Below, in pieces: positions 2,779 through 20,188 of a stretch of DNA of 32,000 nucleotides. The notes under the pieces are model-generated. The model saw only the letters and a program-made list of their open reading frames with translations, had not been told where the DNA came from and did not search any database. Position 1 is the first letter of the stretch. Every line of letters starts with the position of its first letter. Location of the stretch: positions 2,610,001 through 2,642,000 of the forward strand of contig NZ_CP019633.1 in the NCBI RefSeq assembly GCF_001997385.1, read 5' to 3'. The DNA comes from Sedimentisphaera cyanobacteriorum. Lineage in GTDB: Bacteria > Planctomycetota > Phycisphaerae > Sedimentisphaerales > Sedimentisphaeraceae. Both the position numbers and the translations under genes were made by a program.

Positions 2779-2823
2779 TATTAAAAAAAGGCGTCAATGA
2801 AGAAATATAAAAAAGGAAAGACT

Positions 2824-3708
2824 ATGAGAAAAAAGGCCTTTACATTAATTGAATTGCTCGTAGTGATATCAATTATAGCATTGCTTATGGCAATACTTAT
2901 GCCTGCATTAGGAAGGGCAAGAGAGTCTGCGAAAAATGTAATTTGCGGTACAAACCTAAAACAGATTGGTGTTGGTACAGCAATGTATGTAGCTGATTAC
3001 AATGGACGTTTGCCTTCCGCAGTACCTTATGAAGAAAAAAATGAATCATGGAATCCAACTGGTACTGGCGCATGGTTCAATCCTGGCATATACGGCAGCG
3101 GCGGGGAAGTTTATATTGATGGAAAGACAAGAAACTATCCTGGTGTTGGTGCGTATATCGACGTTAGGCTGAAAGAAAATCCTCTTCAAAACAATTCTAT
3201 GCCTGAATCCGGCTCTGTTCTGTTATGTCCAAGTTTAACTAAAAGACAGCTCAATGACGTATTCCCTACAGGTGTATGTTATGGTATGAACTTTGAGTTT
3301 ACAACTGCATCTTTTGCAGGCGTTAGCCGCCCTGGGGACAGGGTTTTGTTTGCTGATTCAACATTTTATTTCTTTACTTATGACCGCATTCAAGAGCCAT
3401 GGATATCTCAGCCAAGTACTGCAACGGTCCTTTGGGATAAATACAGGGATTTGACAAGCGGATATCTCGGCGACTATCAGGAAGACGAGGTTTATGTGAT
3501 ACCTGGCAGACACGGTGCTGGAAATGGTTCTCAAAGTCATGAATCTGCGGAAAAGGGCAAGACTAATGTAATGTTTGTCGATGGACACGTAGAGGGCATA
3601 AACAGAAGCAGTTTAGATGAAAGTGCTGTTGACGACTCAAGGGATAATGTCCCTACTAAAGACAAAGTAGGCACTAGAATGATTGACAATGGTTTAAGGG
3701 ATAAATGA
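2824..3708 (+). CDS. Prepilin-type N-terminal cleavage/methylation domain protein, DUF1559 / H-X9-DG-like (type II pseudopilin-like)
   Basis: [29 protein letters not shown] is the classic prepilin leader plus hydrophobic helix. The C-terminal [10 protein letters not shown] resembles the DUF1559 terminus. I prefer the ATG at 2824, which has AGGAAAG just upstream and gives a short leader. The in-frame ATG at 2797 is not excluded. Confidence 0.85.
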
Positions 3709-3751
3709 TTTGTTAGATCAAATCATCAGCAGCGAGGATGAGTAAATAGCT

Positions 3752-4759
3752 ATGAAAATAACTGGAACATTTATAGATGAGATCACCCATGACATTCCTT
3801 CATCTAACTGGGGGGAAAGAGAATGGGAAGCTGATTTTCAAGCAATGAAATATATTGGCATTGATACTGTTATCATAATTAGGAATGGCTATCGCAATCT
3901 TGCGACATTTAACTCAAAGGTTTTGAGTTCCAATTTTGATATGATCAATGCTCCGATTGACCTGTTAGAACTCTTTCTGTCACTGTCTGATAAGTATGGC
4001 ATAAATCTATTCTTCGGAACTTATGACAGCGGCAAATATTGGATGAATGGTGATTATCAGCGAGAAGTTGATATTAATAAGGCTTTTACAGAAGAGGTGA
4101 ACGATAAATATGGTCATCATCCGTCTTTTCAGGGATGGTATATCAGCCATGAGATTGATACGTACAATCCTGATGTTATGAATGTTTACAGGCAGCTTGG
4201 AAACCACTTGAAAGGCCTGAGAGATATTCCAATTCTTATTTCACCTTATATTCATGGTAAAAAGCAATTTGCAGAAGATCCCACTTCTCTTGAGCAGCAT
4301 AAAGAATCTTGGGATAAGGTTTTTGCAGAGATAAGAGATTGTGTTGACATCGTCGCTTTTCAGGACGGCAATGTTGATTATGCAGAGCTTTATGATTATT
4401 TGCTTGTGAATTCTAAGCTTGCAAAAAAATATCAGCTGACAGGCTGGACTAATGTTGAGACCTTTGACAGGGATGTCCTAATCAAATTTCCGCCGATAAA
4501 CTGGCCGGCGTTATGCCACAAAATGGATGCAGCGACGAGATCTGGCGTGGATAAGATGATAACTTTCGAGTTTTCTCATTTTATGAGCCCGTTTTCAATC
4601 TACCCCGCGGCAAGGCATCTTTATGACAGATATTGTGAATCAGTTGGGTTGACTCCGTTGAATGCTGGAGTGGAATCTGATACAATCAGGTTAGGCGAGA
4701 TTCTGTCAGACAGGCTCGAAAACTCAATTGCTGATACCAGTGCCTTAAGTAATATGTGA
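3752..4759 (+). CDS. DUF4434-like glycoside-hydrolase-like TIM-barrel protein, no signal peptide (cytoplasmic)
   Basis: The N-terminus KITGTFIDEITHDIPSSNWGEREWEADFQAMKYIGIDTVII matches my memory of the DUF4434 family N-terminal signature. There is a GAGGATGAG SD-like sequence upstream. The ORF itself is well supported; the family call is moderate. Confidence 0.7.
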   Translation: MKITGTFIDEITHDIPSSNWGEREWEADFQAMKYIGIDTVIIIRNGYRNLATFNSKVLSSNFDMINAPIDLLELFLSLSDKYGINLFFGTYDSGKYWMNGDYQREVDINKAFTEEVNDKYGHHPSFQGWYISHEIDTYNPDVMNVYRQLGNHLKGLRDIPILISPYIHGKKQFAEDPTSLEQHKESWDKVFAEIRDCVDIVAFQDGNVDYAELYDYLLVNSKLAKKYQLTGWTNVETFDRDVLIKFPPINWPALCHKMDAATRSGVDKMITFEFSHFMSPFSIYPAARHLYDRYCESVGLTPLNAGVESDTIRLGEILSDRLENSIADTSALSNM

Positions 4760-4838
4760 GCCGATGAAATTGAGTATTCATGACAGAATATTTGTATGTT
4801 GTGAGTATTGTATTTCTTAAATTAAGGACTGGCATATA

Positions 4839-5996
4839 ATGGAAAACCAACTAGATAAATATCTTGATCTGTATAGAAAAGATCTTAAAGAATCTGTGGT
4901 TCACTTCTGGCTGAAAAATGCACCCGACAAAGTTAATGGCGGTGTTTTTACTTGTCTGGCCGAAGATGGCTCTGTCTATGATACAAAAAAGTATATATGG
5001 CATCAGGCAAGGGCTGTTTGGACATGCTGCAGGCTGTACAGGCATTTAGCGAAAGAGAACCGCTACCTTGAAACTGCTGAACTATGTATTGATTTTCTTG
5101 AAAGATATTCAACTGATCCTCATGGAAGATATTATTTTGGTGTGAGGATTGACGGGAAACCTTACTGTTATCAGGCAGAGTCTTATGAGCCGGTTTTCTG
5201 CATGATGGCATATCTTGAATATTCTATCGTTAAGAATGATGACAATTATTTCAATAAGGCCGTAAGTCTTTATAAGGATATCAAAAAAAACATATTTTTC
5301 CCGGAAGTGCTGAATTCTACACTGGCAGATCAGCATAATTTCAGCATTTTGGCAGATTCAATGGTTTTGATCGATATGGCCTGCCAATTATACGATTTAA
5401 CAAAAGAACAGATATACTGCGATGATATTGCCGTTTACTTTAAAACTGCTCAAAAGCATTATTTTGAAAAAATTGGTGCTTTGATGGAAGTGGTTTCTCG
5501 TGATTGGACCGACATTTCTGATATTTCCGAAGGTCGTCATTTTAGCCCCGGGCATTCTATAGAAGCCGCTTACTTTTTATTAGAAGCTCAAAAATATGCT
5601 GGCAGCCAGTCTTTAGGTTTTGACCCTCTAGATGTGATCAGAAATACTTTGCAGATCGGCTGGGACAGACAATACGGCGGCTTGCTGAATTATATTGACG
5701 TGCAAGGTAAACCATCGCTATGGCTGGAAGGCAATACAAAGCTTTGGTGGCCGCAGTTTGAGGCAATATATGCTGTGGTTTTGGCATATAAGCTCACTGG
5801 CGATGAAATGTGGCTGAGTTGGCTTGAAAGACTTCATAAATATGTCTATGAACATTTTTATGATTATGAAAACGGCGGATGGTTTGGTTTTTGTGATAGA
5901 GAAGGCAATTTGATAAATAAGGCTAAAGGAAGCCACTCAAAGGGCTTTTTCCATGTTCCAAGAGCAATGTTAAAAACTATTATGTTATATAAATAA
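4839..5996 (+). CDS. AGE-superfamily epimerase (N-acylglucosamine 2-epimerase / RENBP-like), paralog 1
   Basis: Motifs seen: FWLKNAPDKVNGGVFTCLAEDGSVYDTKKYIWHQARAVW, PGHSIEAAYFLLEA, KLWWPQFEAIYA and GGWFGFCDREG..SHSKGFFHVPRA. All are typical of the (alpha/alpha)6 AGE fold. Substrate (GlcNAc/ManNAc vs cellobiose/mannobiose type) cannot be fixed from sequence alone. Confidence 0.8.
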   Translation: MENQLDKYLDLYRKDLKESVVHFWLKNAPDKVNGGVFTCLAEDGSVYDTKKYIWHQARAVWTCCRLYRHLAKENRYLETAELCIDFLERYSTDPHGRYYFGVRIDGKPYCYQAESYEPVFCMMAYLEYSIVKNDDNYFNKAVSLYKDIKKNIFFPEVLNSTLADQHNFSILADSMVLIDMACQLYDLTKEQIYCDDIAVYFKTAQKHYFEKIGALMEVVSRDWTDISDISEGRHFSPGHSIEAAYFLLEAQKYAGSQSLGFDPLDVIRNTLQIGWDRQYGGLLNYIDVQGKPSLWLEGNTKLWWPQFEAIYAVVLAYKLTGDEMWLSWLERLHKYVYEHFYDYENGGWFGFCDREGNLINKAKGSHSKGFFHVPRAMLKTIMLYK

Positions 5997-6044
5997 AGCA
6001 AATTACCGTGGTATTATTCGCCCGGTAAATGCAAAGGATATGCA

Positions 6045-7205
6045 ATGGACGATAAGAAAACGAGAATAGGCGTAGTTGGCTGCGGAAAAAGGGTAGAGCA
6101 GGTTTTACAGGGTTTCTTGAATATAACAGATAATGTTCAGATCACAGCAATTTGTGATCCGTCTAAAGATTCAATCGAAAGCTTCTGTAAAAAATTTTCA
6201 ATAATGCCTGTTGTTTACGAAGATCACAGGGCGCTTTCAAATTCGGCAGATGTTGACTGGGTGATGGTCGGGTCGTGGAATTGCTTTCATCTTGAGCATG
6301 TAAAAGCAGCTTTTGAGGCTGGAAAAAATGTTTTTTGCGAAAAGCCCCTCGCTACAAATGCTTCTGATTGTATTGAATTATATAATGCTTGGAAAGCAAG
6401 CAGCAGCAAATTTATGATAGGTTTTACGCTGAGGTATTCTCCGCATTATCAGAAAATAAAGGAAGTTATAAATCTGGGTATAATCGGTAATCCGATAAGT
6501 CTGGAGTTTAATGAGACATTAGACTTCAACCATGGCGGTTATATTATGGGCGGCTGGAGAAGCCAGCGAGATAAGGCAGGCACACATCTGTTGGAAAAAT
6601 GCTGTCATGATATGGATGTTGTCAACTGGCTCATTCAAAGCAGGCCTGTAATGGCTGCCAGCTTTGGCGGATTAGATGTTTTTAAGCCTGAAAATTCAGG
6701 TATTGTTGATGAATTGAAGTGCAGCGCAGATAATAAAAAGCCATTTCATTCATGGGGGCAGACTGCAAACCCTTTTACAAATTTTAAGGATTTGGTTGAT
6801 AATCAGGTAGCAATAATTCAATATCAAAATGGTACACGCGCAACTTTTCACACAAACTGCTGTTCGGGCATACCTGAGAGACGAATGTATATCATCGGCG
6901 ATAAAGGCTGCATAAGAAGTGATGCGATAGAAGGTAAAATCGAATATCGAAGAATTGGTTTTGATGAAGAATTTGTTGATGTCAGCACCTCTGCTAAGGG
7001 CAGTCATGCAGGGGGCGATGAATATCTGTGCAAATGCTTGAAAGAGCTTTTTGACGGCGAAAGCGAGCCGCAGACGAGTATGTATGACGCTATTGTTTCG
7101 GCAGCTACTTGTTTTGGCATTGACGCAGCTCTGGATGAAGGTTGTGTTTATAATTATGCTGGTATCTGGCAGCAGATGGAAGACGTTTTTAAAGACCTTG
7201 GATAA
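6045..7205 (+). CDS. Gfo/Idh/MocA-family NAD(P)-dependent oxidoreductase, cytoplasmic
   Basis: N-terminal Rossmann motif RIGVVGCGKR and the family EKP motif (VFCEKPLATN). Length is 386 aa with no signal peptide. The family also includes NAD-dependent glycosidases (GH109-type), which cannot be distinguished here. Confidence 0.8.
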   Translation: MDDKKTRIGVVGCGKRVEQVLQGFLNITDNVQITAICDPSKDSIESFCKKFSIMPVVYEDHRALSNSADVDWVMVGSWNCFHLEHVKAAFEAGKNVFCEKPLATNASDCIELYNAWKASSSKFMIGFTLRYSPHYQKIKEVINLGIIGNPISLEFNETLDFNHGGYIMGGWRSQRDKAGTHLLEKCCHDMDVVNWLIQSRPVMAASFGGLDVFKPENSGIVDELKCSADNKKPFHSWGQTANPFTNFKDLVDNQVAIIQYQNGTRATFHTNCCSGIPERRMYIIGDKGCIRSDAIEGKIEYRRIGFDEEFVDVSTSAKGSHAGGDEYLCKCLKELFDGESEPQTSMYDAIVSAATCFGIDAALDEGCVYNYAGIWQQMEDVFKDLG

Positions 7206-7246
7206 CATATCAGAATCTTAACGCTTGAGATAAAAGGAGCAATGGC

Positions 7247-9472: not shown

Positions 9473-10289
9473 AGTAATCTTAATATTATTTTTCATTGTT
9501 GCGTTTTATCTAACCGGATGCAGTTCATACGAACCGATAATTATTGCACACCGCGGCAATTCCGGCTATGCACCGGAGAATACAGAAGCAGCCGTTAAGA
9601 GCGCTTGGCAGGTAAAGGCTGATGCTGTTGAGGTGGATGTGCATATCACAAAAGACGATCAGGTAGTAGTTTTGCATGATGGAAACACAAAACGCACAAG
9701 CGGAGAAGATTTCGTTGTTGAAAATTGCAGCTATGCTGATATTGCCTCTTTAGATGTTGGTTCGCATAAAGGGTGGCATTTCAGGAATGAACGAATTCCG
9801 CTGCTGAAAGATATTATTGACACTGTCCCGGAAGGTAAGCAGTTATTTGTAGAGGTTAAATGCTCAGAGAGAATTATTCCGTTCCTCAAAGACATTTTCT
9901 CCAAGAGCGGGAAGATTCAGCAGCTTTGCATAATATCGTTCAATCTTGAATTGCTTGGTAAGGCAAAGAAGGTTATGCCGCAGGTGCCGATGTACTGGCT
10001 TGCCTCGCCGCGAAAAGCAGAAGGCGGTGAATATTTGCCTTTCGATGCTGAATATATTCAATCTGCAAAGAAGCATGGCCTTGACGGACTTAATTTAAGC
10101 TATGGGATGCTGAGTGAGTCTTTTGTTAAGCAGGTGCATAAAAATGGTCTTGAGCTTTTTGTATGGACAGTCAATTATCTGCCTGATGCAGAGAGGATGA
10201 GGGCCTGGGGCGTTGATGGGATTACAACAAATTATCCTGCAGATGTTTTGATGATATTTGATAATAACAGTGGCTGCTATGAAAACTAA
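9462..10289 (+). CDS. Glycerophosphodiester phosphodiesterase (GDPD) family lipoprotein
   Basis: Signal peptide with lipobox LTGC. GDPD signature: IIAHRGNSGYAPENTEAAV...ADAVEVDVHITKDDQVVVLHDGNTKRTSG. The start overlaps the symporter stop by 11 nt. Confidence 0.85.
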   Translation: MKRRVILILFFIVAFYLTGCSSYEPIIIAHRGNSGYAPENTEAAVKSAWQVKADAVEVDVHITKDDQVVVLHDGNTKRTSGEDFVVENCSYADIASLDVGSHKGWHFRNERIPLLKDIIDTVPEGKQLFVEVKCSERIIPFLKDIFSKSGKIQQLCIISFNLELLGKAKKVMPQVPMYWLASPRKAEGGEYLPFDAEYIQSAKKHGLDGLNLSYGMLSESFVKQVHKNGLELFVWTVNYLPDAERMRAWGVDGITTNYPADVLMIFDNNSGCYEN

Positions 10290-13155
10290 ATTCTTATTTG
10301 TATTGCTTATCTCACTTTTAAATATTTCTTTTGCTGATTATATCGCAAGAGATGATGGCGGGTCTGTGAAGTCATTTTCCCAAACTGTTGGTGATATGCA
10401 TCTCTCGTATGTTCCAAGGCTTGGTATGTCGCTTTCTGTTCGTGGAACGAATGTCATAACAAGCAGTTCTTTTGCAGTTGTTTCTGCTGGCTGGACAGAA
10501 AAGTATTTTGCTACCATGGCCCAGACCAGACTCCACAAGCTGGAGGTTGAGGACTATAATGGCGGCAAAAGACTTATCCTCCATCATTTAAGTTCAACTG
10601 ATCCCGAGCAGCTTGTAACAGGAACCGAAACTTATACTATGCTGCCTGATAATACTTTTACAATCGAGTATGATTTGGCCTTTGCAGGGCAAGGGCAGGC
10701 CTTTTATGAGGGGCAGGTAGGTGCATTAAATGCTTTGCCTATTGTTGGCGAGAAATTTGTTTCGTATGCTGATGGCGTTAAGAAGACAGGTATTGTGCCT
10801 CTTGAAGCGATCAGCTCAGATGCAGAAGAAGCTACGGTTGCCTGTGATTTTGATAAGCTTATCTTGCAGACAAGGCTTGGACAGATAGAGATAATATCGG
10901 ACAGCAGCGATAATATTCGCCTCTTTGATTACAGAAAGAATGCATGGGCAGATTCCACAAATCCGATCTTTTGGTTGGGTTTTCTTGAGAGGCCTTTTCC
11001 CGATGATGGGATAAATTATAAAGTTGCGTTTAGATTTGATCTTAAGAAGGCCGAAAACAGAGTTGAGCGAACAGCTGAAAACAAGCTTTCTGTTAAAGCT
11101 ACTGATAAGGCAAGAGTTCGTAAGTGGGGACAGGATTATATTATGCCTGAGCCTAAGAGCCTTGAATATACTGATGACAAATTTCACATTAATCAGCATA
11201 CAAAGATTTACACTGCCGAAGAAGTAACGCCAAAATTGCAAAGGAGCATAGATTATTTCCTTGAAGATTTTGAAGCAGTATTTGGCTTTGCACCGAAGGT
11301 TGTCAGTAAGAATTCTGGTAAATTAGCAAATACTGTTGTAATCGCCAAGAGCGGCGAATGCGAAAGAGTGGACGAAGAGTTCGAAAAAAACGCTTTAGAA
11401 CTCAATAAGCACGCAGAGGCATATAATCTAATATGCAGTGATGAAGAAATATACATTACAGCTAATACCGATCAAGGTCTTTTCTATTCTCTAACCTCTC
11501 TTATTCAGCTTGCAGTTGTCGAAGAGCAGAAGCAATACTTTAAGGGTGCAATAATCGCAGACTATCCATCATTGGATTTCAGGGGCGTTCATTTTTTCTC
11601 AGGCAAGAATGCCTATTCGCAGATCAGCAAAACTTTGAGAAATCTGCTTGCAAGGCATAAGATCAATATGCTGGCCTTTGAGTGTGAGTATGTCAACTGG
11701 GAATCGAAGAAAAAATCTTGGCACCCGCATTACGGCATGGATAAAAAGGATGCCTTGAAGGTTTTCAAGGATACTTATAAGTACAACATTGAAATGACGC
11801 CTTTTGTTAATTGCCTTGGACATTGTGAATGGCTGTTTGCCAATGGCCAGAATCTTGATTTAGCAGAAGATCCGGATTACCCCTACGCCTACTGTGTAAC
11901 AAATCCTGATACCTATGAGTTTTTATTTGAGCTGTTTGAAGAGATTCTTGATGCTTGCGTTGAGAAGCCGAGATATTTCCATATTGGTCATGATGAAGTT
12001 ACCATCGTAGGCCGTTTCCCATACAGAAGCAAGGATACCGGAAAAACCGCAAGCGAATTATTTTTTGAGGATACCAACAGGCTTTATGAATGGTTTGCCG
12101 ATAGAGATGTTAAAATATCAATGTGGGGTGATATGCTGATCTCCGGCGAGGAGGCAAGCAGCTCTGCTCACGCTCCGAATCCTGAGGAGTCTAAGAAAAG
12201 GCGAGATAAGATTGCCCGAGATGTTCTTATTTGTGATTGGCATTATGAGGTTAATGAGCCTGAAAAATATATATCTCTCGATCTTTTCAAAAAGGATGGG
12301 TTTAAAACAGTAGGCGCTGCTTGGTTTGAGCCTGAGAACATTAAGAATATGGTGCAGGCGGTTAAAAATAATTCACAGAAAGGTATTTTGCAGACAACAT
12401 GGGCGGGTTACAATTTTGCTGTAGATAGAAATGTGTCTCAGTGGAACCAGTATTGGGCATATTTATATGCTGCATATTATGCATGGACAGCGGATACAAG
12501 GTCGCAGGAGGAGCTTGATTTTAGTGCGCCGCAGCTGTTCTGGGATATATGGAACGAAACCAAGCCATTAGCAGAGAATAAGGACGGATACTTTTTTGAC
12601 CTGAGCGATATTTATAATCGCAGATTAAAGGATGACGAGGATTCCACCGACTGGCTTGGCTATGGAGCTGGAAATGATATGTCTGCATTCTCCGGTCAGG
12701 AGCTGCACACCGACACTAACTACCTTATCAAGGCTGGGGCTGAGCAAAATTCAGTTTTATTAACAAGCGGCAATCTCAATCCTAAAGGTGCTTACCCAAA
12801 TAAAGCAGTATTGAATGCGGATATAAAGGCTGATGAGATAAGGATGCTTATTGATACTTCTTTCCCAAATAAGTTTGGAAAAGAGGTCGGGAAGCTCACA
12901 CTCAAATATGCAGATAATACTTCTTACAGCAAACCGCTCAAGTATGGCGAGGATATTCTGGCTTATACAGATTTAAGGGTTGCTCCTAATACGCAAATGG
13001 TTTGGATAGGTGAAAATCAAAATGGTAAAGAAATTTGCGTCCATCAATACATACTTCCAAATCCGAGGCCAAACAAGCAGATTACTTCAATAGAAATTGA
13101 AGGCGGGCAGACAGACAGCTCGCTGCTGCTTTACGCTGTAACTGCTGTGAAATAA
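10279..13155 (+). CDS. GH20-like (beta-N-acetylhexosaminidase-like) multidomain exported hydrolase
   Basis: The ATG at 10279 gives a clean signal peptide (MKTKFLFVLLISLLNISFA); the track start at 10258 is less likely. GH20b-like domain: EAYNLICSDEEIYITANTDQGLFYSLTSLIQL. This is followed by ADYPSLDFRGVHF and FHIGHDEV, where the D-E pair is kept but GGDE is replaced by GHDE. About 270 aa N-terminal and ~300 aa C-terminal have no call. Confidence 0.65.
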   Translation: MKTKFLFVLLISLLNISFADYIARDDGGSVKSFSQTVGDMHLSYVPRLGMSLSVRGTNVITSSSFAVVSAGWTEKYFATMAQTRLHKLEVEDYNGGKRLILHHLSSTDPEQLVTGTETYTMLPDNTFTIEYDLAFAGQGQAFYEGQVGALNALPIVGEKFVSYADGVKKTGIVPLEAISSDAEEATVACDFDKLILQTRLGQIEIISDSSDNIRLFDYRKNAWADSTNPIFWLGFLERPFPDDGINYKVAFRFDLKKAENRVERTAENKLSVKATDKARVRKWGQDYIMPEPKSLEYTDDKFHINQHTKIYTAEEVTPKLQRSIDYFLEDFEAVFGFAPKVVSKNSGKLANTVVIAKSGECERVDEEFEKNALELNKHAEAYNLICSDEEIYITANTDQGLFYSLTSLIQLAVVEEQKQYFKGAIIADYPSLDFRGVHFFSGKNAYSQISKTLRNLLARHKINMLAFECEYVNWESKKKSWHPHYGMDKKDALKVFKDTYKYNIEMTPFVNCLGHCEWLFANGQNLDLAEDPDYPYAYCVTNPDTYEFLFELFEEILDACVEKPRYFHIGHDEVTIVGRFPYRSKDTGKTASELFFEDTNRLYEWFADRDVKISMWGDMLISGEEASSSAHAPNPEESKKRRDKIARDVLICDWHYEVNEPEKYISLDLFKKDGFKTVGAAWFEPENIKNMVQAVKNNSQKGILQTTWAGYNFAVDRNVSQWNQYWAYLYAAYYAWTADTRSQEELDFSAPQLFWDIWNETKPLAENKDGYFFDLSDIYNRRLKDDEDSTDWLGYGAGNDMSAFSGQELHTDTNYLIKAGAEQNSVLLTSGNLNPKGAYPNKAVLNADIKADEIRMLIDTSFPNKFGKEVGKLTLKYADNTSYSKPLKYGEDILAYTDLRVAPNTQMVWIGENQNGKEICVHQYILPNPRPNKQITSIEIEGGQTDSSLLLYAVTAVK

Positions 13156-13166
13156 AGGGTGTTAAA

Positions 13167-14807
13167 ATGAAAAAAATATTACAGTGTTTAATTTTGCTTG
13201 CTCCGGTTCTTTTATATGCTTCCGATATTGTAGATTACCCTTTTGAAGGAGTTAAGCATATTCATCGAACCTTAACAGAGCCGCGAAACATTAACATAAA
13301 TATTGTTGAGATAGAGCTTTCTGCTGAGGGTATAGGTTTCGCAGTTACTCCAAGCAATGGCGAGAGCCCAGGCGATGCAGACGCCTGCACCACTACAAGC
13401 TTTATGCAGAGTGCCGGCTGCCAGATTGCTGTCAATGCCGGTTTCTATAATATGATAACAAATGATGTATTGGGCTATGTATGCGCCAGGGGCTATGCGT
13501 ATTCTCCTTTTATGGATTTAAGCTCGGAATCATGGCCGCAGCCTTATGCAGCTCTCAATATTTCACCATATAATCAGCCTGATATGATATTCCCGGCAGA
13601 TGACCAGCCTTTGGGTACTGCTTCCACACCTGTGCATCAGCCTTGGAATGCTGTACCGGGCAGTGAGTGGATTGTTCGTGAAGGTGCTGCGATTGTTGAT
13701 GACAGCTGGCCTGTTAATACAGGCCTGCATCCAAGAACCGCAGGGGGGTACAATCAGGACAAGAGCATATTGTACTTGGTAACGGTTGACGGCAGGCAAA
13801 ACGGCTTCAGCGAAGGAATGACAGTTCAAGAAGTTGCACAGCTCCTTGTTGACCTTGGAGTATATCAGGGCATAAATTTTGACGGCGGCGGCTCTACAAC
13901 AATGGCTTTTGCCGATCCTGCACCGCGAGTTGTGAACTCTCCTTCAGGCGGTTCACAAAGATCTGTTGCCAACCATCTTGGAGTTTATGCAAATTATGAT
14001 GATGATATTGAGCAGTATTACATTTTCAGCGGCTTTGAGAACAGCAGTGAAGGAACATTTACTTATTCTCCCGGCTATTCCGGCTCAACCCAAGGAATAA
14101 TCTCCTCCTATTCAACAGCATACCCAAACACTTCTCGATTTTGGTCAGGCCAATGGTCGGAAAAGCTTGTGATCGCTGAAGACCCTGCTGTTAGCAGTGT
14201 AAGCGAGAACCCTCAGGGCGGCTGGTTTGTTCGCTGGGTCTCCGGGGCATCTGCGAGCCCCTCTGAAAATGTTTCTCGGCCGGCAGAAGGTTATATAGGC
14301 TTCTGGGCAAGGACTTCCTACGAAGGACTGCAGGTCTCTATGTGCATTGATAATGATTCTCAAATGGAGAGAGGCGTACCCGTAGAAATGCAGCCGGACG
14401 GATATTGGCATTGTTATCAATGGTCGCTTGAAGATGATTCGAAGTGGGAAGGGTGGTACAATGGAGACGGATCAGTTTCGGAAGATACTTTCACTATAGA
14501 CAGCATTCAACTATTAGGTCCAAATACTAATGCAGTGGTCTATATTGATGATATAAGCCATGATGCGGCTGGTTCGCTGGAGCGTTATGAAAATTGCGAA
14601 CAAATATGGAAGTCAGGCAGGGGGATGGCTCCTGATTATAATCAGGACTGTGTTATAGATTCACAAGACCTTGAGGTGTTTGCGAGAAATTGGCTTGAAT
14701 GCTCTTCTGTGTATGATTTGGTTTCTACTTCAAGCGGAAGGGTTGATATGATAGATCTTGGGTATTTCTCAAAGTTTTGGCTTTCGAGTAATGATCCTGA
14801 AAAATAA
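13167..14807 (+). CDS. Phosphodiester glycosidase family protein (NAGPA 'uncovering enzyme'-like, DUF2233/PF09992-like) + CBM-like domain + C-terminal dockerin-like module
   Basis: Signal peptide present. The motif HPRTAGGYNQDKSILYLVTVDGRQNGFSEGMTVQEVAQLLVDLGVYQGINFDGGGSTTM is the family hallmark (HPRTA..DGR..S.G.T..E.A..L..LG...A.NLDGGGS). The C-terminus has DYNQDCVIDSQDLEVFARNWL and a second degenerate repeat. Confidence 0.8.
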   Translation: MKKILQCLILLAPVLLYASDIVDYPFEGVKHIHRTLTEPRNININIVEIELSAEGIGFAVTPSNGESPGDADACTTTSFMQSAGCQIAVNAGFYNMITNDVLGYVCARGYAYSPFMDLSSESWPQPYAALNISPYNQPDMIFPADDQPLGTASTPVHQPWNAVPGSEWIVREGAAIVDDSWPVNTGLHPRTAGGYNQDKSILYLVTVDGRQNGFSEGMTVQEVAQLLVDLGVYQGINFDGGGSTTMAFADPAPRVVNSPSGGSQRSVANHLGVYANYDDDIEQYYIFSGFENSSEGTFTYSPGYSGSTQGIISSYSTAYPNTSRFWSGQWSEKLVIAEDPAVSSVSENPQGGWFVRWVSGASASPSENVSRPAEGYIGFWARTSYEGLQVSMCIDNDSQMERGVPVEMQPDGYWHCYQWSLEDDSKWEGWYNGDGSVSEDTFTIDSIQLLGPNTNAVVYIDDISHDAAGSLERYENCEQIWKSGRGMAPDYNQDCVIDSQDLEVFARNWLECSSVYDLVSTSSGRVDMIDLGYFSKFWLSSNDPEK

Positions 14808-14830
14808 TATATGAAAATAATGCGGCTTTG

Positions 14831-17458
14831 ATGATGAAGAATTTGTGCACCTCGGCTTTATTTTTACTTTTATTTGCTCCTTTCACTGCTGCTTCTATGC
14901 AGGAGAATGTATCAGCGGCAGAGGGTTTGATTGAAAGGGTTTTGGGTAAAAGTGATGCCGCTCTGTTTGAGGTAGAGTTCATATCGCAGCAGGACGGCTA
15001 TGATGTTTTTGAGATAGAGACGATTAAAAATAAGATTCATCTGCGAGGCTCAAACCCCGTATCTGTCGGCAGAGCATTAAAGTATTATTTGAATGAGTAC
15101 TGTAATTGCAGTCTCTCTTGGCGGGGAGATAATCTTAACCTGCCTTCCCCTTTGCCGATGCCTGAATCAAAGGCGCGTGAGAGCACGCCTTTTGAGTATC
15201 GTTACTTCTTCAATAACTGTGTTTACGGCTATTCGCTTGCTGGATGGAATTGGCAGCAGTGGGAGCGGATGATCGATATAATGGCATTGAACGGCATTAA
15301 CCTGCCGCTCTGTCTGCTTGGTCAGGAGAAAGTTTGGCAGGAAACATACCTTGAATTGGGTTTTGACAAAGATGATTTGAAGGATTTCTTCGCCGGCCCT
15401 GCATGGATGCCGTGGCAATGGATGGGAAACCTTGACGGCTGGGGTGGTCCTTTGCCGCAGAGTGTGATTGATAAACAGGCTGATTTGCAGAAAAAGATAT
15501 TATCACGTGTTCGCGAACTAGGTATGAAGCCTGTCCTCTCCGGCTTCTCAGGGCATATACCAGCCGCAGTTGTAAGTAAGTATCCTGATGCGGAAGTTCA
15601 CGAACTTGAATGGCAGGGTTTCGGGCCGACATATCTGCTGGATTGGCAGGAGCCACTTTTTAAGCAAATAGGCTCAACATTTATCAAAAAACAGAAAGAG
15701 ATTTACGGCACGGATCATTACTATTCAATTGACCCTTTCAATGAGATGAGGCCTCCCTCTGATGAGCCGGATTATATCAGGAATATGGGTAAAACCATTC
15801 TTAATTCAATGTTGGAAGGGGATCCTCAAGGCACATGGGTGCTTATGACATGGTTTTGCAAAAGTCCTCAATTCGACTGGAATTATTGGCAGACAGACAT
15901 AACCGAAATTTTCTTTGATTCTATCCCGAATGACAAACTACTTGCTCTTGAGCTCCATGCCGACAGCCTTCAGTGGACAGGATGGTTTAGGCAAAATGGC
16001 TGGTACGGCAAACCTTGGATATGGTGTGCCATACAGAACTTCGGTTATACAGTTGATATATATGGCGGGTTGCCTCAGATAACAGATAATTACAAGATGA
16101 TGGTGGAATCTGATAACAAAGGCAATCTTGTTGGTATGGGTATCGCAATGGAGGGGTTGGGGTATAACCCTGTGGTCTTCGAGCTGCTCTTCGATATGAT
16201 GTGGGCAGAGGGTGTGCATGACCTTGACCAATGGAAAGAAAAGTATCTGCTCAAACGCTACGGTGTGGTTCCTGAATCCGTCAGGAAAGCATGGGAAATA
16301 CTTTATTCCGTTCGTTATACAAGGCACGAAAGGACAGGCGGCACGCCGCTTAGTTACGCTCCAGGGCTTTGGGATGATGCGCAGGTTGATGTAAGACTTG
16401 TAAACGCTTGGCAGCTGATGCTTGCAGGCGCAGAAGAACTGGCAGATTGCCAGGCGTACAGATACGATCTGGTTAACATTGGAAGAGAGGTGATGGGTTT
16501 GTATGCCTCGCATTATTCGAATGCTATAAAAAATGAATTTTACAGTAAAGACGTAGAAGGTTTTGAGAAGGCTTCTAAGGATATGCTTGAATTTATCGAC
16601 GATTTCGATTCTCTGCTTGCCACGAATAAACATTTTCTCCTTGGAAGATGGATAAAAGGATTTCGCTCATTAGGCAGCACTCCTGAAGAGAAACAGCTTA
16701 TGGAGTGGAACGCTAAAAGGCAGATTACAGATTGGGGCGGCAATAATGGTACTTATGCGGTTAAAGAGTGGTCAGGGATCTTCAGCAGCTATACTAAGCC
16801 GCTGTGGGAGATATATCTGAACTGCCTTAAAAAGAGAATGCAGGGTGAAACTGTAAGCGATGAGCAGCTTGAGAAAAATTATGCTGTTTTCAGAAAGAAA
16901 TGGGCTTCTTCTCATAGCGAATTAAGTACTAAGCCAGTTGGTTGTGCTGTCGAAGTAAGCAGGAGGCTTTGGCAGAAGTATGGCATTGAGATCAAAGAAA
17001 ATAATGGCAAAGGCATTATTAAAACTCCTTCTGGTATTGCTGTTGGTAAAAAAGCAGAAGCTCCTTCTTGGGAGAATTACCGAAAACCTGAGTACGCTGT
17101 TGACGGGGATATTAAGCGAGACAATGGATGGTGGGCAGCAGCCCCGGCCGCTATTACAATTGACCTGGAAAAGGTTGAAACATTGTTTGGCTTTCAGGTT
17201 TATACATACTGGGGAGACAGCAGGTATTATCAGTATGAGATCGAAACTTCTCTTGATGGCGAGAAGTGGGTGCGCGTTGTAGATATGCTTTCCAATACGC
17301 GTCAGGCAGGAAGAAACGGCTGCCTGCACAAAATTAAGATTGCGCATCCTGAAGGTATAAAGGCTCGTTACGTGCGTCTTAATATGGTAAAAAACAGTGC
17401 CAACGGGAGTGTTCATGTATCAGAATTCAAAGTTTTCAATTCTGAGATAGGTTTTTAG
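14831..17458 (+). CDS. Alpha-N-acetylglucosaminidase (GH89, NAGLU-like) with C-terminal F5/8 type C (discoidin/CBM32-like) domain
   Basis: Signal peptide present. YRYFFNNCVYGYSLAGWNWQQWERMIDIMALNGINLPL closely parallels the human NAGLU motif YRYYQN.C..SYS..WW.W..WE.EIDWMALNGINL. The C-terminal ~140 aa (YAVDGD...ITIDL...YYQYEIETSLDGEKW..V....ARYVRLNM) look discoidin-like. ATG at 14831 is preferred over TTG at 14828. Confidence 0.9.
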   Translation: MMKNLCTSALFLLLFAPFTAASMQENVSAAEGLIERVLGKSDAALFEVEFISQQDGYDVFEIETIKNKIHLRGSNPVSVGRALKYYLNEYCNCSLSWRGDNLNLPSPLPMPESKARESTPFEYRYFFNNCVYGYSLAGWNWQQWERMIDIMALNGINLPLCLLGQEKVWQETYLELGFDKDDLKDFFAGPAWMPWQWMGNLDGWGGPLPQSVIDKQADLQKKILSRVRELGMKPVLSGFSGHIPAAVVSKYPDAEVHELEWQGFGPTYLLDWQEPLFKQIGSTFIKKQKEIYGTDHYYSIDPFNEMRPPSDEPDYIRNMGKTILNSMLEGDPQGTWVLMTWFCKSPQFDWNYWQTDITEIFFDSIPNDKLLALELHADSLQWTGWFRQNGWYGKPWIWCAIQNFGYTVDIYGGLPQITDNYKMMVESDNKGNLVGMGIAMEGLGYNPVVFELLFDMMWAEGVHDLDQWKEKYLLKRYGVVPESVRKAWEILYSVRYTRHERTGGTPLSYAPGLWDDAQVDVRLVNAWQLMLAGAEELADCQAYRYDLVNIGREVMGLYASHYSNAIKNEFYSKDVEGFEKASKDMLEFIDDFDSLLATNKHFLLGRWIKGFRSLGSTPEEKQLMEWNAKRQITDWGGNNGTYAVKEWSGIFSSYTKPLWEIYLNCLKKRMQGETVSDEQLEKNYAVFRKKWASSHSELSTKPVGCAVEVSRRLWQKYGIEIKENNGKGIIKTPSGIAVGKKAEAPSWENYRKPEYAVDGDIKRDNGWWAAAPAAITIDLEKVETLFGFQVYTYWGDSRYYQYEIETSLDGEKWVRVVDMLSNTRQAGRNGCLHKIKIAHPEGIKARYVRLNMVKNSANGSVHVSEFKVFNSEIGF

Positions 17459-18877: not shown

Positions 18878-18912
18878 ATTATAGAACCCTGATAATCTTA
18901 AAAGCTTCCAAT

Positions 18913-18940: not shown

Positions 18941-18945
18941 ATATA

Positions 18946-18959
18946 ACGTATCGATACGT
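18946..18959. promoter_or_regulatory. Operator O1: perfect 14-bp palindrome ACGTATCGATACGT (candidate LacI-family site)
   Basis: The sequence is exactly self-complementary with a central CG, as in LacI-family operators. It sits in the divergent intergenic region next to the LacI gene. Confidence 0.6.
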
Positions 18960-19047
18960 GTAAGGCTGCTCGTATTTAAGTGTCTTTAATAAATCATTAA
19001 TATTGCTTTGAATCGCTTATTTATTGCTTTATTTTATTATAAAAATA

Positions 19048-19075: not shown

Positions 19076-19100
19076 AATGCAGTCGATAATTGAAAGTGAG

Positions 19101-20174: not shown

Positions 20175-20188
20175 CAGATTTTAAGCTA

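Follow-up and report, generated by a model that had tools for sequence, protein, structure and literature searches.

Counterparts of the core of the locus analysed here recur in Bacteroidota, in which DUF4434-MFS-AGE gene sets are accompanied by SusC/D and, to a varying extent, by GH89, GH20, FAD_oxidored, ADP_ribosyl_GH or GHL10 genes. BT0433-0438 of B. thetaiotaomicron is one example, and its DUF4434-transporter-AGE-GH89 operon, BT0434-0438, is listed in a predicted NanR regulon (PMC3878776 supplement). The window examined here is a stretch of 32,000 nucleotides from the genome of Sedimentisphaera cyanobacteriorum, and its glycan-scavenging locus appears to span roughly positions 2797-23950, or may begin as early as base 1 (Table 1). 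We consider it quite likely that the locus serves HexNAc-glycan catabolism and consists of a conserved DUF4434-transporter-AGE core to which phosphodiester-cleaving functions have been added. The source of the isolate, an anaerobic planctomycete, was a hypersaline cyanobacterial mat.

A sequence-only reading had described a ten-gene block at 2824-17458. Nine ORFs of at least 100 aa were counted from 2797/2824 to 17458, and the junctions given as -11 to +79 bp were reproduced (+43, +79, +48, +41, -11, ~-11, +11 and +20). The genes are indeed co-directional, which is weak evidence for a unit when taken alone as nearly all large ORFs of the 32 kb lie on the plus strand; that they form a unit beyond chance follows instead from the conserved neighbourhoods of related loci. 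These show that the block is conserved only in part and was drawn too narrowly, with part of the conserved core lying 3' of it at 17559-23950. The family assignments all hold, the nearby SGNH esterase was located, and the reported lack of a sialate lyase agrees with the Pfam search, in which no DHDPS/NanA-type lyase was found among ORFs of at least 250 aa. Export signals, read by eye from the N-termini of the translated ORFs, were likewise as described: a lipobox (LTGC) on the GDPD, cleavable-looking signals on the GH20-like, NAGPA-like and GH89 proteins, and none on the DUF4434 protein, the first AGE or the oxidoreductase. The esterase also has a cleavable-looking signal and the second AGE has none.

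Table 1. Features of the window (positions counted from its first base)
Feature	Position	Strand	Evidence
Large repeat protein, Ig-like and LamG/ConA-like units, C-terminal dockerin-like tail	1..2702	+	Pfam Laminin_G_3 3e-24
Prepilin-type N-methylation/DUF1559 protein, pseudopilin-like, first gene of block A	2797..3708	+	Pfam N_methyl, SBP_bac_10; NCBIfam prepilin domain
DUF4434, cytoplasmic, clan GH-A-like (beta/alpha)8 glycosidase	3752..4759	+	Pfam 9e-73
N-acylglucosamine 2-epimerase (AGE) copy 1 (ManNAc <-> GlcNAc), cytoplasmic	4839..5996	+	Pfam 2e-41
Gfo/Idh/MocA NAD(P) oxidoreductase, cytoplasmic	6045..7205	+	Pfam
Sodium:solute symporter (SSF), 741 aa, long insertion and tail	7247..9472	+	Pfam SSF 1.5e-15
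GDPD-family glycerophosphodiester phosphodiesterase, lipoprotein	9462..10289	+	Pfam 6.3e-38
GH20-like enzyme, 965 aa, exported	10258..13155	+	Pfam GH20b 1.1e-15; PDB 9fym/9fyl 1.6e-22, 8bal
NAGPA-family phosphodiester glycosidase, exported	13167..14807	+	Pfam PF09992 7e-30 (cutoff 25 bits)
GH89 alpha-N-acetylglucosaminidase, exported, C-terminal CBM32	14828..17458	+	Pfam NAGLU 9.4e-121
PF12831 FAD-dependent oxidoreductase, frameshifted into two ORFs (17559-18440, 18437-18877)	17559..18877	-	Pfam 1.2e-70, 2e-22
Two copies of 14-bp palindrome ACGTAYCGRTACGT, candidate LacI operators	18946..19069	.	18946-18959 perfect; 19056-19069 one mismatch
LacI-family regulator	19008..20174	+	Pfam LacI, Peripla_BP_3
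DUF5009 polytopic membrane protein, HGSNAT/NagX-like	20162..21679	+	Pfam DUF5009 8.2e-62
AGE copy 2	21687..22838	+	Pfam 6.3e-50
GxDLY and SGNH esterase, exported, sugar O-acetylesterase type	22850..23950	+	Pfam Lipase_GDSL_3 1.6e-45, GxDLY 1.6e-28
GH43, exported, 140-aa N-terminal extension	24179..25513	+	Pfam GH43 1.2e-53

Five related Sedimentisphaerales-type loci (L081, L082, L084, L085 and L088; six with the window) were compared. Across them the conserved partners of this NAGPA subfamily are DUF4434, DUF5009, SSF, AGE, LacI and GxDLY/SGNH esterase genes, essentially none of which neighbour NAGPA in eighty distant loci of other phyla. DUF4434 and AGE also occur near each other in L104. The GDPD, GH89 and GH20-like enzymes are absent from all five closest loci and are accessory to the core. 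Orthologues of the SSF protein, the presumed importer of a released sugar or disaccharide, adjoin NAGPA in L083, L084 and L085 (36-42% identity); in L088, where a Gfo-like gene adjoins SSF-NAGPA, the SSF is 27% identical. PDB matches of the window's own oxidoreductase were non-discriminating (among them 8qc2/8qc3, YjhC, inositol dehydrogenases and 6z3b). An N_methyl/DUF1559-type gene like the first of block A, which has an alternative start at 2824, is likewise present in L081, L082 and L085. At the 5' edge, the repeat protein is cut by the window start (frame open from base 3) and carries a 906-nt internal duplication, 300 nt of it at 93% identity; it may be a surface glycan-binding component, and its membership of the locus is uncertain. 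LamG-like matches were found near NAGPA in L095. At the other end, membership of the GH43 gene seems doubtful given the 228 bp gap after the esterase gene and its lack of conservation in related loci.

The phosphodiesterase and phosphodiester glycosidase had been put forward as the key pair, and HMM searches place both proteins in these families. The NAGPA-like protein comprises a glycosidase domain (residues ~75-275), a CBM-like beta-sandwich (~283-475; pLDDT 79, weakly matching CBM11/4/30-like folds) and a dockerin-like tail. It aligns across the entire catalytic core of vertebrate NAGPA (profile 1.5e-17), and its DGGGS (D239-S243), a sugar-phosphate motif (PMC13474241), is invariant in 27 homologues together with the downstream R265. 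The best structural match of the GDPD is 2pz0 (1.2e-29), followed by 5t91 (4.8e-26), the wall-teichoic-acid exo-hydrolase GlpQ of B. subtilis. In L081 and L082 the GDPD is absent and a metallophosphoesterase lies beside NAGPA, exported with a TAT signal and lipobox in L081, so that NAGPA is paired with an exported phosphoesterase in three of the six loci. A phosphodiester-linked substrate would predict such recurrence. We know of no bacterial NAGPA-family member with a demonstrated substrate, and the enzyme could also be an alpha-HexNAc-ase acting on non-phosphate aglycones.

Both AGE copies appear to be true epimerases, as had been claimed for the first. Copy 1 matches AGEs of known structure (6f04 1.5e-66, 2gz6 1.3e-63) far better than cellobiose 2-epimerases (1e-22), and AGE is its top NCBIfam match, yet below the family cutoff; copy 2 also scores below cutoff (8.3e-108) and is the orthologue of the AGE of the related loci (67% identity with the L081 gene). 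ManNAc is therefore very probably a product of the locus, as judged from these family comparisons. The DUF4434 protein is 50% identical to BT_0435 (PDB 4h41) and 60-71% identical to its counterpart in every close related locus covering that position, with E134 (GWYISHE) and E273 (TFEFSHF) invariant; its next nearest folds are a GH5 beta-mannanase, a GH164 beta-mannosidase and a GH2 beta-glucuronidase (clan GH-A). As is established for glycosidases, the neighbouring-group mechanism of GH20-type enzymes cannot cleave the 1,2-cis bond of beta-ManNAc, for which a classical two-carboxylate enzyme is thus needed. From fold class and gene neighbours we propose that the DUF4434 protein may hydrolyse an imported disaccharide as a beta-N-acetylmannosaminidase; the fold would suit a role as beta-mannosidase, beta-glucuronidase or beta-galactosidase equally well.

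The GH20-like enzyme consists of an N-terminal region, GH20b, a divergent catalytic barrel belonging to the disaccharide-releasing subgroup, and a further region at the C-terminus. Pfam gave no PF00728 match, the catalytic domain being recognised only via its PDB relatives 9fym/9fyl. The catalytic Asp-Glu of TrdeGH20 corresponds in the alignment to HIGHDEV of this enzyme; DWHY, MWGD and TTW are conserved as well, whereas the Cys cluster is not kept. The nearest relatives with solved structures possess a -2 subsite, and the disaccharides that they release are LacNAc or LNB (PMC11776370). The GH89 protein further matches NAGLU_C (1.5e-58), NAGLU_N (8.8e-24) and F5_F8_type_C (3.4e-14).

In the downstream half, the frameshifted FAD-oxidoreductase has an intact orthologue of 437 aa in L082. 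Its family recurs in loci of this type, and a PF12831 gene adjoins DUF4434 in the Bacteroides loci L107 and L108. The LacI gene, whose true start is probably near 19100, has orthologues heading L081 and L082 (59-61% identity). Between these two divergent genes lie the only two matches to the palindrome in the window (0.39 expected by chance; at least two in 9 of 100 shuffles), and the motif is also found 5' of LacI in L081 and L082, of SSF-NAGPA in L084 and L085, and of NAGPA in L087. No copy was found by the motif search 5' of block A, so that co-regulation of the two halves is no more than possible. DUF5009, with a weak NagX match below the NCBIfam cutoff, is a presumed acetyl-CoA:glucosaminide N-acetyltransferase; its orthologues (45-46%) adjoin DUF4434 and NAGPA in L081, L082, L084 and L085. 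Those of the esterase in L081 and L082 are 58-65% identical.

Judging by family membership, the CBM-bearing NAGPA-like enzyme would cut the GlcNAc-1-O-phosphate glycosidic bond outside the cell, and the exported phosphoesterase, here the GDPD lipoprotein and in two relatives a metallophosphoesterase, would handle the leftover phosphoester or glycerol-phosphate. The SGNH esterase would strip O-acetyl groups and DUF5009 would re-acetylate de-N-acetylated glucosamine, allowing GH89 to remove alpha-GlcNAc, while the GH20-like enzyme, whose nearest characterised relatives are disaccharide-releasing, would cut at beta-GlcNAc. After import by the SSF transporter, the cytoplasmic DUF4434 protein, a putative retaining glycosidase, would split a beta-ManNAc-containing disaccharide and the two AGEs would supply glycolysis with GlcNAc made from ManNAc. 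At least the downstream half is probably under the control of the LacI regulator, acting at the candidate operators.

Our tentative reading of the substrate, held at somewhat less than even confidence, is a ManNAc/GlcNAc-rich bacterial wall glycopolymer linked through GlcNAc-alpha-1-phosphate, candidates being the secondary cell wall polysaccharides attached to peptidoglycan in cyanobacteria or Gram-positives and the ManNAc-beta1,4-GlcNAc-1-P teichoic linkage unit. This broadens the teichoic-acid-like substrate suggested earlier, of which the linkage unit survives and the teichoic main chains and MenA/X-type capsules are less favoured. Poly(glycerol-phosphate) decorated with alpha-GlcNAc is an unlikely defining substrate since the GDPD, GH89 and GH20-like enzymes are accessory; taken with DUF4434, a disaccharide-type GH20, DUF5009 and the esterase, the linkage unit points more to ManNAc/GlcNAc wall polysaccharides. 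A peptidoglycan-bound polymer with a phosphodiester link, O-acetylation and de-N-acetylated alpha-hexosamine offers a chemical fit (PMC7759979), and CsaB and SLH, companions of pyruvylated ManNAc polymers, occur mainly in Firmicutes and Cyanobacteria (PMC6801904).

Several points count against the wall-glycopolymer reading. Much of the chemical fit would come from the three enzymes that the five closest loci lack, and in their place those loci encode an uncharacterised exported protein of ~610 aa with no counterpart in the window; the window holds no muramidase, galactosidase or pyruvyl-ketal-removing enzyme of known family; and with so many enzymes to assign, a fit to a single polymer is easily overdone. 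The B. thetaiotaomicron data point to host glycans as the target, or simply to GlcNAc sensing: keratan sulfate and colonic mucin O-glycans induce BT0438 (GH89), and BT0439 has been detected in HMO/GOS cultures. In favour of the wall-glycopolymer reading, BT0438 itself cleaves pNP-alpha-GlcNAc, and mucin alpha1,4-GlcNAc caps are not cleaved by it.

The earlier statement that no locus of this composition had been described was too strong, as BT0433-0438 is listed in the predicted NanR regulon (PMC3878776); the core composition is already on record, though uncharacterised, in gut Bacteroides and Bacteroidota PULs. The proposed order of DUF5009 and then GH89 resembles the lysosomal logic of HGSNAT followed by NAGLU. 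Although GH89 is accessory in Sedimentisphaerales, the window locus has in common with the B. thetaiotaomicron operon both the DUF4434-transporter-AGE set and a GH89 enzyme (BT0438).

The window probably carries a locus for the catabolism of a HexNAc glycan, organised around a core of DUF4434 protein, transporter and N-acylglucosamine 2-epimerase (AGE), to which phosphodiester-cleaving enzymes have been added. Its upstream part, hereafter block A (2797-17458), consists of nine co-directional ORFs with junctions of -11 to +79 bp; the sequence-only reading had counted ten genes here, whereas every family that it named was confirmed by Pfam. Nearly every gene of the window lies on the + strand.

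Features of the window, with their position relative to block A and their principal family assignment
Feature	Position (nt)	Location	Assignment
LamG-repeat ORF	1-2702		LamG
Pseudopilin-like protein		block A	N_methyl/DUF1559 (Pfam)
DUF4434	3752-4759	block A	PF14488, 245.7 bits, full length, 9e-73 (Pfam)
GlcNAc 2-epimerase (AGE) copy 1, AGE1	4839-5996	block A	Pfam 2e-41
Oxidoreductase		block A	Gfo/Idh/MocA (Pfam)
Transporter	7247-9472	block A	SSF (Pfam)
GDPD	9462-10289	block A	PF03009, 131.7 bits, cutoff 23.6, 6.3e-38 (Pfam)
GH20-like	10258-13155	block A	GH20b (Pfam)
NAGPA-like	13167-14807	block A	PF09992 (DUF2233), 104.9 bits, cutoff 25, profile positions 2-169/169, 7e-30 (Pfam)
GH89	14828-17458	block A	All NAGLU domains: PF12971 8.8e-24, PF05089 9.4e-121, PF12972 1.5e-58; additional F5/8-C (CBM32-type) 3.4e-14 (Pfam)
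FAD-dependent oxidoreductase	17559-18877 (-)	3' of block A	PF12831 (Pfam)
Palindrome, perfect copy	18946-18959	3' of block A	
LacI	19008-20174	3' of block A	LacI (Pfam)
Palindrome, one-mismatch copy	19056-19069	3' of block A	
DUF5009	20162-21679	3' of block A	DUF5009, 209 bits, cutoff 25 (Pfam)
Second AGE, AGE2	21687-22838	3' of block A	AGE (Pfam)
SGNH esterase	22850-23950	3' of block A	GxDLY/SGNH (Pfam)
GH43, exported	24179-25513	3' of block A	GH43 (Pfam)

Signal peptides were judged by eye from the N-termini. GDPD was read as a lipoprotein (signal LTGC), export signals were apparent on the GH20-like, NAGPA-like, GH89 and SGNH proteins, and DUF4434, both AGEs and the oxidoreductase were cytoplasmic in appearance. 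No SusC/D-type domains were found within the window by Pfam, and hence not the adjacent SusC/SusD pair of a Bacteroidota-type PUL. Among the window ORFs scanned there was also no match to DHDPS/NanA, GH33 or BNR families, so that the lyase and sialidase of a nan cluster were not found, in line with the absence of a sialate lyase noted in the earlier account; the same ORFs contained no heparin lyase, sulfatase, unsaturated-uronyl hydrolase, sialidase or NanA-type lyase. No muramidase, galactosidase or depyruvylating enzyme was identified in the window. Rfam and tRNA scans returned no matches, and promoter and terminator scans gave nothing usable above shuffled sequences.

Two genes at the edges of this region have features of their own. 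The LamG-repeat ORF runs past the window start (the frame is open from base 3) and contains a 906-nt internal duplication, the central 300 nt of which are 93% identical, which suggests that an Ig-like and LamG unit was recently duplicated or underwent gene conversion; its C-terminus has a dockerin-like motif, as does that of the NAGPA-like protein. The GH43 protein has an N-terminal extension of ~140 aa with no family match, and its gene, 228 bp 3' of the esterase gene, is not kept in related loci.

The close subfamily of the NAGPA-like protein (39-51% identity) was drawn from metagenomes and MAGs and is represented by loci L081-L088. Its neighbours there were DUF4434 (60-71% identity to the window protein), DUF5009 (45-46%), AGE (37-67%), SSF (36-42%, with 27% in L088), SGNH (58-65%) and LacI (59-61%), together with a DUF1559 pseudopilin-like protein, and this core neighbourhood is kept in five independent contigs. 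As several of these conserved neighbours are encoded at 17559-23950 in the window, the functional unit reaches beyond block A, and the boundaries of 2824-17458 first proposed for it were too narrow. Gene count and boundaries apart, the earlier observation was essentially right. Compared with the related loci, the window locus is rearranged into two blocks. The GH89, GH20-like and GDPD genes are absent from the five closest related loci. As a negative control for gene context, 80 distant NAGPA-family loci from other phyla, drawn by the generic DGGGS pattern, were used, and essentially none of the window neighbours occurred there among the matches listed. An exported protein of ~610 aa is found in L081 (5595-7424), L082 (5507-7360) and L085 (976-2841), between the DUF1559 gene and either DUF4434 (L081, L082) or AGE (L085). 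These proteins are 51-61% identical to one another, have no Pfam or NCBIfam match, are not present in the window and are a candidate for a depolymerase of the system.

A perfect 14-bp palindrome, ACGTATCGATACGT, lies between the divergent FAD-oxidoreductase and LacI genes, and a one-mismatch copy occurs in the same intergenic region. These are the only two copies in the window, with a chance expectation of 0.39 and at least two copies in 9 of 100 shuffles. In the related loci ACGTAYCGRTACGT is found twice upstream of the LacI orthologues (L081 at 312 and 380; L082 at 53 and 131), upstream of SSF-NAGPA (L084 at 5662; L085 at 6915 and 6983) and upstream of NAGPA in L087 (2020). The ACGTAYCGRTACGT palindrome is thus a candidate operator of the LacI regulator of the locus, and its recurrence in several species links this regulator with the genes for NAGPA and the transporter. 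No copy was found in front of block A (with up to 3 mismatches or as degenerate cores), so that a single regulon for both blocks of the locus is conjectural.

The NAGPA-like protein, to which the source-genome contig carries a 100% match, was compared with more distant relatives through a profile of 27 homologues. This profile matched vertebrate NAGPA at 1.5e-17, spanning the catalytic core, and a DUF2233 protein of B. ovatus at 2e-23. All 27 aligned sequences share D239-G-G-G-S243 and R265, the Arg lying 26 residues downstream. The catalytic Asp of the family is part of this loop, and its Arg binds phosphate. In a 2026 structural study (PMC13474241) the recognition of GlcNAc-1-phosphate is ascribed to the DGGGS loop together with an Arg further on (R316 of the human enzyme), and R265 would, by spacing alone, be the counterpart of human R316. 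Residues 283-475 form a conserved beta-sandwich with weak resemblance to carbohydrate-binding modules, followed by a dockerin-like tail, and this domain build is that of an enzyme acting on an external polymer. The literature searched contained no bacterial NAGPA member whose substrate had been proven.

The PF09992 and GDPD assignments, on which the earlier interpretation depended, both pass the Pfam thresholds. The nearest structures to GDPD were 2pz0 and, as second-best at 4.8e-26, 5t91 (B. subtilis GlpQ); the likeness to 5t91 is generic for the family, and against the NCBIfam glycerophosphodiesterase equivalogs the protein scored 114 with a cutoff of 264. In L081 and L082 an exported metallophosphoesterase is encoded directly 3' of NAGPA; that of L081 has a TAT signal and a lipobox and weakly resembles phosphodiesterases of the CpdA type. 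Although the superfamily differs, NAGPA thus repeatedly has a phosphoesterase as its partner. In L084, L085 and L088 no phosphoesterase was found near NAGPA in the available sequence.

The window DUF4434 protein is 100% identical to L21SP3_02084 and 50% identical to BT_0435 (PDB 4h41), with TM values of 0.84-0.89 and a model pLDDT of 86. The family is large (>6000 clusters at 90% identity) and unusually conserved, its members in Planctomycetota, Bacteroidota and Cyanobacteria being 58-60% identical. In the invariant motifs GWYISHE and TFEFSHF, two glutamates (E134, E273) are positioned as in clan GH-A retaining glycosidases, and by structure comparison the nearest folds after 4h41 were GH5 beta-mannanases, a GH164 beta-mannosidase and GH2 beta-glucuronidases. 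DUF4434 is also paired with AGE in two phyla. A beta-ManNAc bond is not open to the neighbouring-group mechanism of GH20-type enzymes and would call for a classical two-carboxylate enzyme, and on the strength of the GH-A-like Glu residues, the fold neighbours and the AGE pairing we propose that DUF4434 is a beta-N-acetylmannosaminidase feeding AGE. In the literature searched the term "N-acetylmannosaminidase" was not found, and DUF4434 had only an unrelated mention. A role as a GH156-type sialidase or NanA analogue was considered and rejected: single-sequence and profile searches found no PDB relative except 4h41, and the nearest folds are clan GH-A beta-glycosidases, whereas the closest fold to the solved GH156 sialidase is Cwp19 (PMC6811678).

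Members of this family differ in their N-termini and gene context. Bacteroidota proteins (P0241-P0360) are ~30 residues longer at the N-terminus, some with a TAT signal (PF10518), and planctomycete and cyanobacterial proteins begin directly at the barrel. DUF4434 thus seems to act in the periplasm of one phylum but in the cytoplasm of the other, and the compounds transported would accordingly differ. Cyanobacterial DUF4434 proteins (L103; P0197, P0236, Halothece and others) are 59% identical to the planctomycete protein, and that of Anthocerotibacter panamensis (L103, 8001-8918) is encoded by a stand-alone gene and lacks a signal peptide. Cyanobacteria are also the source of the best-studied AGE structures (6f04, 2gz6), and these observations hint at an endogenous, ManNAc-related role in recycling.

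Both epimerases are much nearer to true N-acylglucosamine 2-epimerases than to cellobiose epimerases, although both are under the NCBIfam 600-bit equivalog cutoff: AGE1 matched 6f04 at 1.5e-66 as against 1e-22 for cellobiose 2-epimerase (PDB), and AGE2 matched NCBIfam AGE at 8.3e-108 as against 3.9e-21 for EpiA. The DUF5009 protein scored 39 bits against NCBIfam NagX (cutoff 480), and PDB and NCBIfam matches did not discriminate the subfamily of the Gfo/Idh/MocA protein. The PF12831 gene is split by a frameshift into two overlapping ORFs (146 and 293 aa), through decay to a pseudogene or else through an error in sequencing; the L082 orthologue is intact (437 aa), and the family adjoins DUF4434 in Bacteroides loci L107 and L108. 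The SSF transporter is unusually long (741 aa), with two separate Pfam stretches and an extended C-terminal membrane region, and its orthologues are shorter (L085, 692 aa; L088, 612 aa).

The GH20 assignment stood in part. Pfam recognised only the GH20b accessory domain of this exported, multidomain, 965-aa protein, the catalytic PF00728 was not matched, and the NCBIfam match was far under its cutoff. The protein nevertheless aligned with the solved TrdeGH20 (9fym/9fyl) over ~260 residues, its HIGHDEV falling on HVGLDEV, which holds catalytic D188/E189, and its MWGD, DWHY and TTW on W232, W273/Y275 and W329, the subsite -1 tryptophans and the subgroup-specific Trp-x-Tyr after beta6 (residue roles from PMC11776370). 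A -2 subsite is present in TrdeGH20 and in four enzymes related to it, all of which liberate LacNAc or lacto-N-biose, not single HexNAc; TrdeGH20 and Niako3494 belong to GH20 CUPP group 19.1 (N-acetyllactosaminidase/lacto-N-biosidase; PMC11776370). The window protein has in common with this group the HxGxDE Asp-Glu pair, DWHY and the subsite -1 tryptophans, but it lacks the Cys/metal cluster and its domain escapes PF00728. As to GH89, BT0438 of B. thetaiotaomicron cleaves pNP-alpha-GlcNAc and not mucin alpha1,4-GlcNAc caps, the efficient heparosan alpha-GlcNAc-ase being a different enzyme, Bt3590. GH89 and GH20 were unmentioned in the Planctomycetota/Phycisphaerae CAZyme comparative literature searched.

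Judged from the gene content, the leading candidate for the substrate is a ManNAc/GlcNAc wall glycopolymer or its linkage unit, a suggestion that we make tentatively. In one such polymer an acid-labile phosphodiester forms the bond to peptidoglycan, O-acetyl groups are present and the terminal unit contains a de-N-acetylated alpha-hexosamine (PMC7759979); the polymer of Paenibacillus alvei has disaccharide repeats with pyruvylated beta-ManNAc and GlcNAc. CsaB pyruvyltransferases and SLH domains, which accompany polymers of this type, are found chiefly in Firmicutes and Cyanobacteria (PMC6801904). On a polymer of this kind, de-N-acetylated alpha-hexosamine would be re-acetylated by DUF5009 ahead of GH89, which would remove alpha-GlcNAc; beta-GlcNAc would fall to the GH20-like enzyme with ManNAc in subsite -2, and beta-ManNAc to DUF4434, with AGE converting the ManNAc to GlcNAc. 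O-acetyl groups would be taken off by the SGNH esterase, the GlcNAc-1-P anchor by the NAGPA-like enzyme and any residual phosphoester or glycerol-phosphate by GDPD or Metallophos. The organism itself was isolated from a cyanobacterial mat. The mapping of many enzymes onto one polymer is easily over-fitted, and the enzymes that fit best here are the non-conserved ones. The lack of a muramidase, galactosidase or depyruvylating enzyme and the induction of the Bacteroides operon on host glycans also count against this substrate. The earlier interpretation of the substrate is thus partly supported: its linkage-unit idea is retained, and the emphasis has shifted away from poly(glycerol-phosphate) and HexNAc-1-P capsules. 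A wider reading, which we regard as rather doubtful, is that DUF4434 would be the missing beta-N-acetylmannosaminidase and the NAGPA subfamily would de-anchor WTA/SCWP at the GlcNAc-1-phosphate bond to peptidoglycan, forming with AGE and the transporter a cross-phylum pathway (Planctomycetota, Bacteroidota, perhaps cyanobacterial self-recycling) for the consumption of ManNAc/GlcNAc wall polymers and of the universal linkage unit, ManNAc-beta1,4-GlcNAc-1-P.

It is distinctly unlikely that a phosphodiester backbone is the main substrate. As a teichoic acid this would be alpha-GlcNAc-decorated poly(glycerol-phosphate), stripped of its substituents by GH89 and then depolymerised by GDPD; as a sugar-1-P capsule it would be a meningococcal A/X-type HexNAc-1-phosphate polymer, which the NAGPA-like enzyme would cut before phosphate and O-acetyl groups were removed and the sugar was epimerised. 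The family membership of GDPD, with 5t91 as its second-best solved relative, and the NAGPA motifs would suit such a backbone, and L081 has NAGPA, phosphoesterase, SGNH esterase and AGE, as an O-acetylated ManNAc-1-P polymer would require (in L082 all but AGE are present). However, GDPD and GH89 are missing from all five closest related loci, L084, L085 and L088 lack a phosphoesterase near NAGPA, the Bacteroidota DUF4434-AGE core occurs without NAGPA or GDPD, and DUF4434 (the most conserved protein), DUF5009 and a disaccharide-type GH20 would be left without a role. The opposite suggestion, another HexNAc-rich glycan with no phosphodiester bonds (mat exopolysaccharide, partly deacetylated alpha-linked HexNAc polymers, chitin-derived material) or the recycling of own envelope sugars, is unlikely. 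The NAGPA-like protein would then be an ordinary alpha-HexNAc-ase or have another role, and the phosphoesterases would be incidental. This agrees with the lack of a bacterial NAGPA homologue of known substrate in the literature searched, with L084, L085 and L088, with the DUF5009/NagX-type proteins of GlcNAc and chitin regulons (by NCBIfam name) and, for recycling, with the stand-alone cytoplasmic cyanobacterial DUF4434 gene. It sits poorly with the strict conservation in the NAGPA subfamily of the DGGGS sugar-phosphate loop and downstream Arg (PMC13474241) and with phosphoesterases of two different superfamilies recurring beside NAGPA, and the CBM-like/dockerin-like modules and the signal peptides on four enzymes favour an external polymer over self-recycling.

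Animal or host-type alpha-GlcNAc glycans, or sialoglycan-derived sugars, are quite improbable. Heparosan/heparan-like chains would be one example, with GH89, an HGSNAT-like DUF5009 and DUF4434 acting as a beta-glucuronidase; mucin-type glycans capped with alpha-GlcNAc would be another. A third is a pathway related to sialic acid, as suggested by the names NanR, nanJ and nanE-II used in Bacteroides. GH89 and DUF5009 do parallel the consecutive lysosomal NAGLU and HGSNAT, the DUF4434 fold neighbours include GH2 beta-glucuronidases, the B. thetaiotaomicron counterpart has been placed in a sialic acid/GlcNAc regulon with BT0438 induced on keratan sulfate and colonic O-glycans, and the GxDLY/SGNH esterase is of the sialate-O-acetylesterase type. 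Against this, the window lacks every one of the sialidase, lyase, sulfatase and uronyl hydrolase activities searched for, heparosan catabolism would give AGE no role, BT0438 does not cut mucin alpha1,4-GlcNAc caps and Bt3590 is the efficient heparosan enzyme, and the related planctomycete loci have no GH89. In addition, S. cyanobacteriorum lives in anoxic hypersaline microbial mats. That the genes are not one system at all, being unrelated CAZyme genes side by side in a CAZyme-rich, strand-biased genome, is highly improbable. The near-uniform + strand genes of the window, the GH89, GH20-like and GDPD genes not being conserved neighbours and the lack of a common operator before block A could be read in this way, but eight junctions are of 79 bp or less, DUF4434, DUF5009, SSF, AGE, NAGPA, SGNH and LacI are kept at 36-71% identity (SSF of L088, 27%) in five independent contigs, the core is conserved across phyla and an operator motif is common to several loci.

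Much of the wall mass of Gram-positive bacteria and cyanobacteria consists of wall teichoic acids and secondary cell wall polysaccharides, the natural turnover of which is barely understood. The turnover enzymes known to us are GlpQ/PhoD-type phosphodiesterases only, and we know of none for beta-ManNAc bonds or the GlcNAc-1-P-MurNAc anchor. If the wall-polymer reading were true, it would give a function to three widespread orphan families (DUF4434, bacterial NAGPA/DUF2233 and DUF5009), explain the BT0434-0438 operon of a model gut symbiont and provide new enzymes to dissect or strip bacterial wall polymers. Were the substrate different, a clean, testable catabolic module conserved across phyla would still be left; the main value lies in three orphan families and a model-organism operon that are directly testable.

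Among known systems, the GDPD-type GlpQ of Bacillus subtilis/Staphylococcus (with PhoD) is like the window in having an exported GDPD phosphodiesterase. GlpQ systems are phosphate-starvation enzymes and not multi-glycosidase loci, and the window differs from GlpQ teichoic-acid scavenging in that its GDPD is not kept in related loci; we know of no bacterial system that removes the ManNAc-GlcNAc-1-P linkage unit. Sialic-acid clusters of Bacteroides/Tannerella consist of a nanL/nanA lyase, nanE AGE epimerase, nanT transporter, NanS esterase, sialidase and GH20. The window shares with them an AGE-type epimerase, a dedicated transporter, a GxDLY/SGNH O-acetylesterase, GH20-type hexosaminidases and ManNAc as the likely intermediate, but it has no sialidase or N-acetylneuraminate lyase, and DUF4434 stands where the ManNAc-generating enzyme would be expected. 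Homologues of vertebrate NAGPA, HGSNAT and NAGLU are all found in the window locus (PF09992 with DGGGS, DUF5009 and GH89), and the lysosomal/Golgi logic of N-acetylating glucosamine, then removing alpha-GlcNAc, and of cutting GlcNAc from a phosphodiester may apply here. Sequence identity to the window proteins is low, however, vertebrate NAGPA has EGF repeats and a transmembrane anchor where the bacterial protein has a CBM-like domain and dockerin-like tail, and the habitat of S. cyanobacteriorum is not expected to offer the vertebrate substrates, Man-6-P-GlcNAc on N-glycans and heparan sulfate.

The nearest counterpart is in Bacteroidota. The predicted NanR regulon of B. thetaiotaomicron comprises BT0433 nanR (ROK), BT0434, BT0435 (4h41), BT0436 nanJ (MFS), BT0437 nanE-II (AGE) and BT0438 GH89, followed by SusC/D (PMC3878776; Ravcheev et al., 2013), and the operon is induced on host glycans. 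With this listing the DUF4434-transporter-AGE-GH89 composition is not unprecedented, although no described locus of such composition had been known to the sequence-only reading. Bacteroidota DUF4434 contigs carry a recurrent PUL of ROK, exported DUF4434, MFS, AGE, SusC, SusD and DUF5018, sometimes with GH20 or GHL10, SusC/D domains being present in L107-L113, and with either FAD_oxidoreductase or ADP-ribosylglycohydrolase (neither in L109/L110). In L111-L113 (12529-14049) the ADP-ribosylglycohydrolase-family protein fills the slot between DUF4434/MFS and AGE, or just upstream, and BT0434, annotated as an NTP pyrophosphohydrolase, lies in the corresponding slot. Both belong to sugar-phosphate or pyrophosphate chemistry, and in Bacteroidota they may correspond to NAGPA/GDPD. 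BT0433-BT0440 and the window thus have in common DUF4434, an inner-membrane sugar transporter, AGE, a GH89 in the same operon and the absence of lyase and sialidase, and the PF12831 oxidoreductase and GH20 that recur by the Bacteroidota core are also in the window. The glycan utilisation locus type is therefore already known, its core being on record in Bacteroidota but never characterised. The Bacteroidota loci differ in having SusC/D, in their MFS transporter and ROK regulator, and in exporting DUF4434 (signal/TAT). In the planctomycete locus the transporter is of the SSF and the regulator of the LacI family, a pseudopilin-like DUF1559 protein is present and DUF4434 is cytoplasmic; NAGPA, DUF5009, GDPD or Metallophos, and the SGNH esterase are additions.
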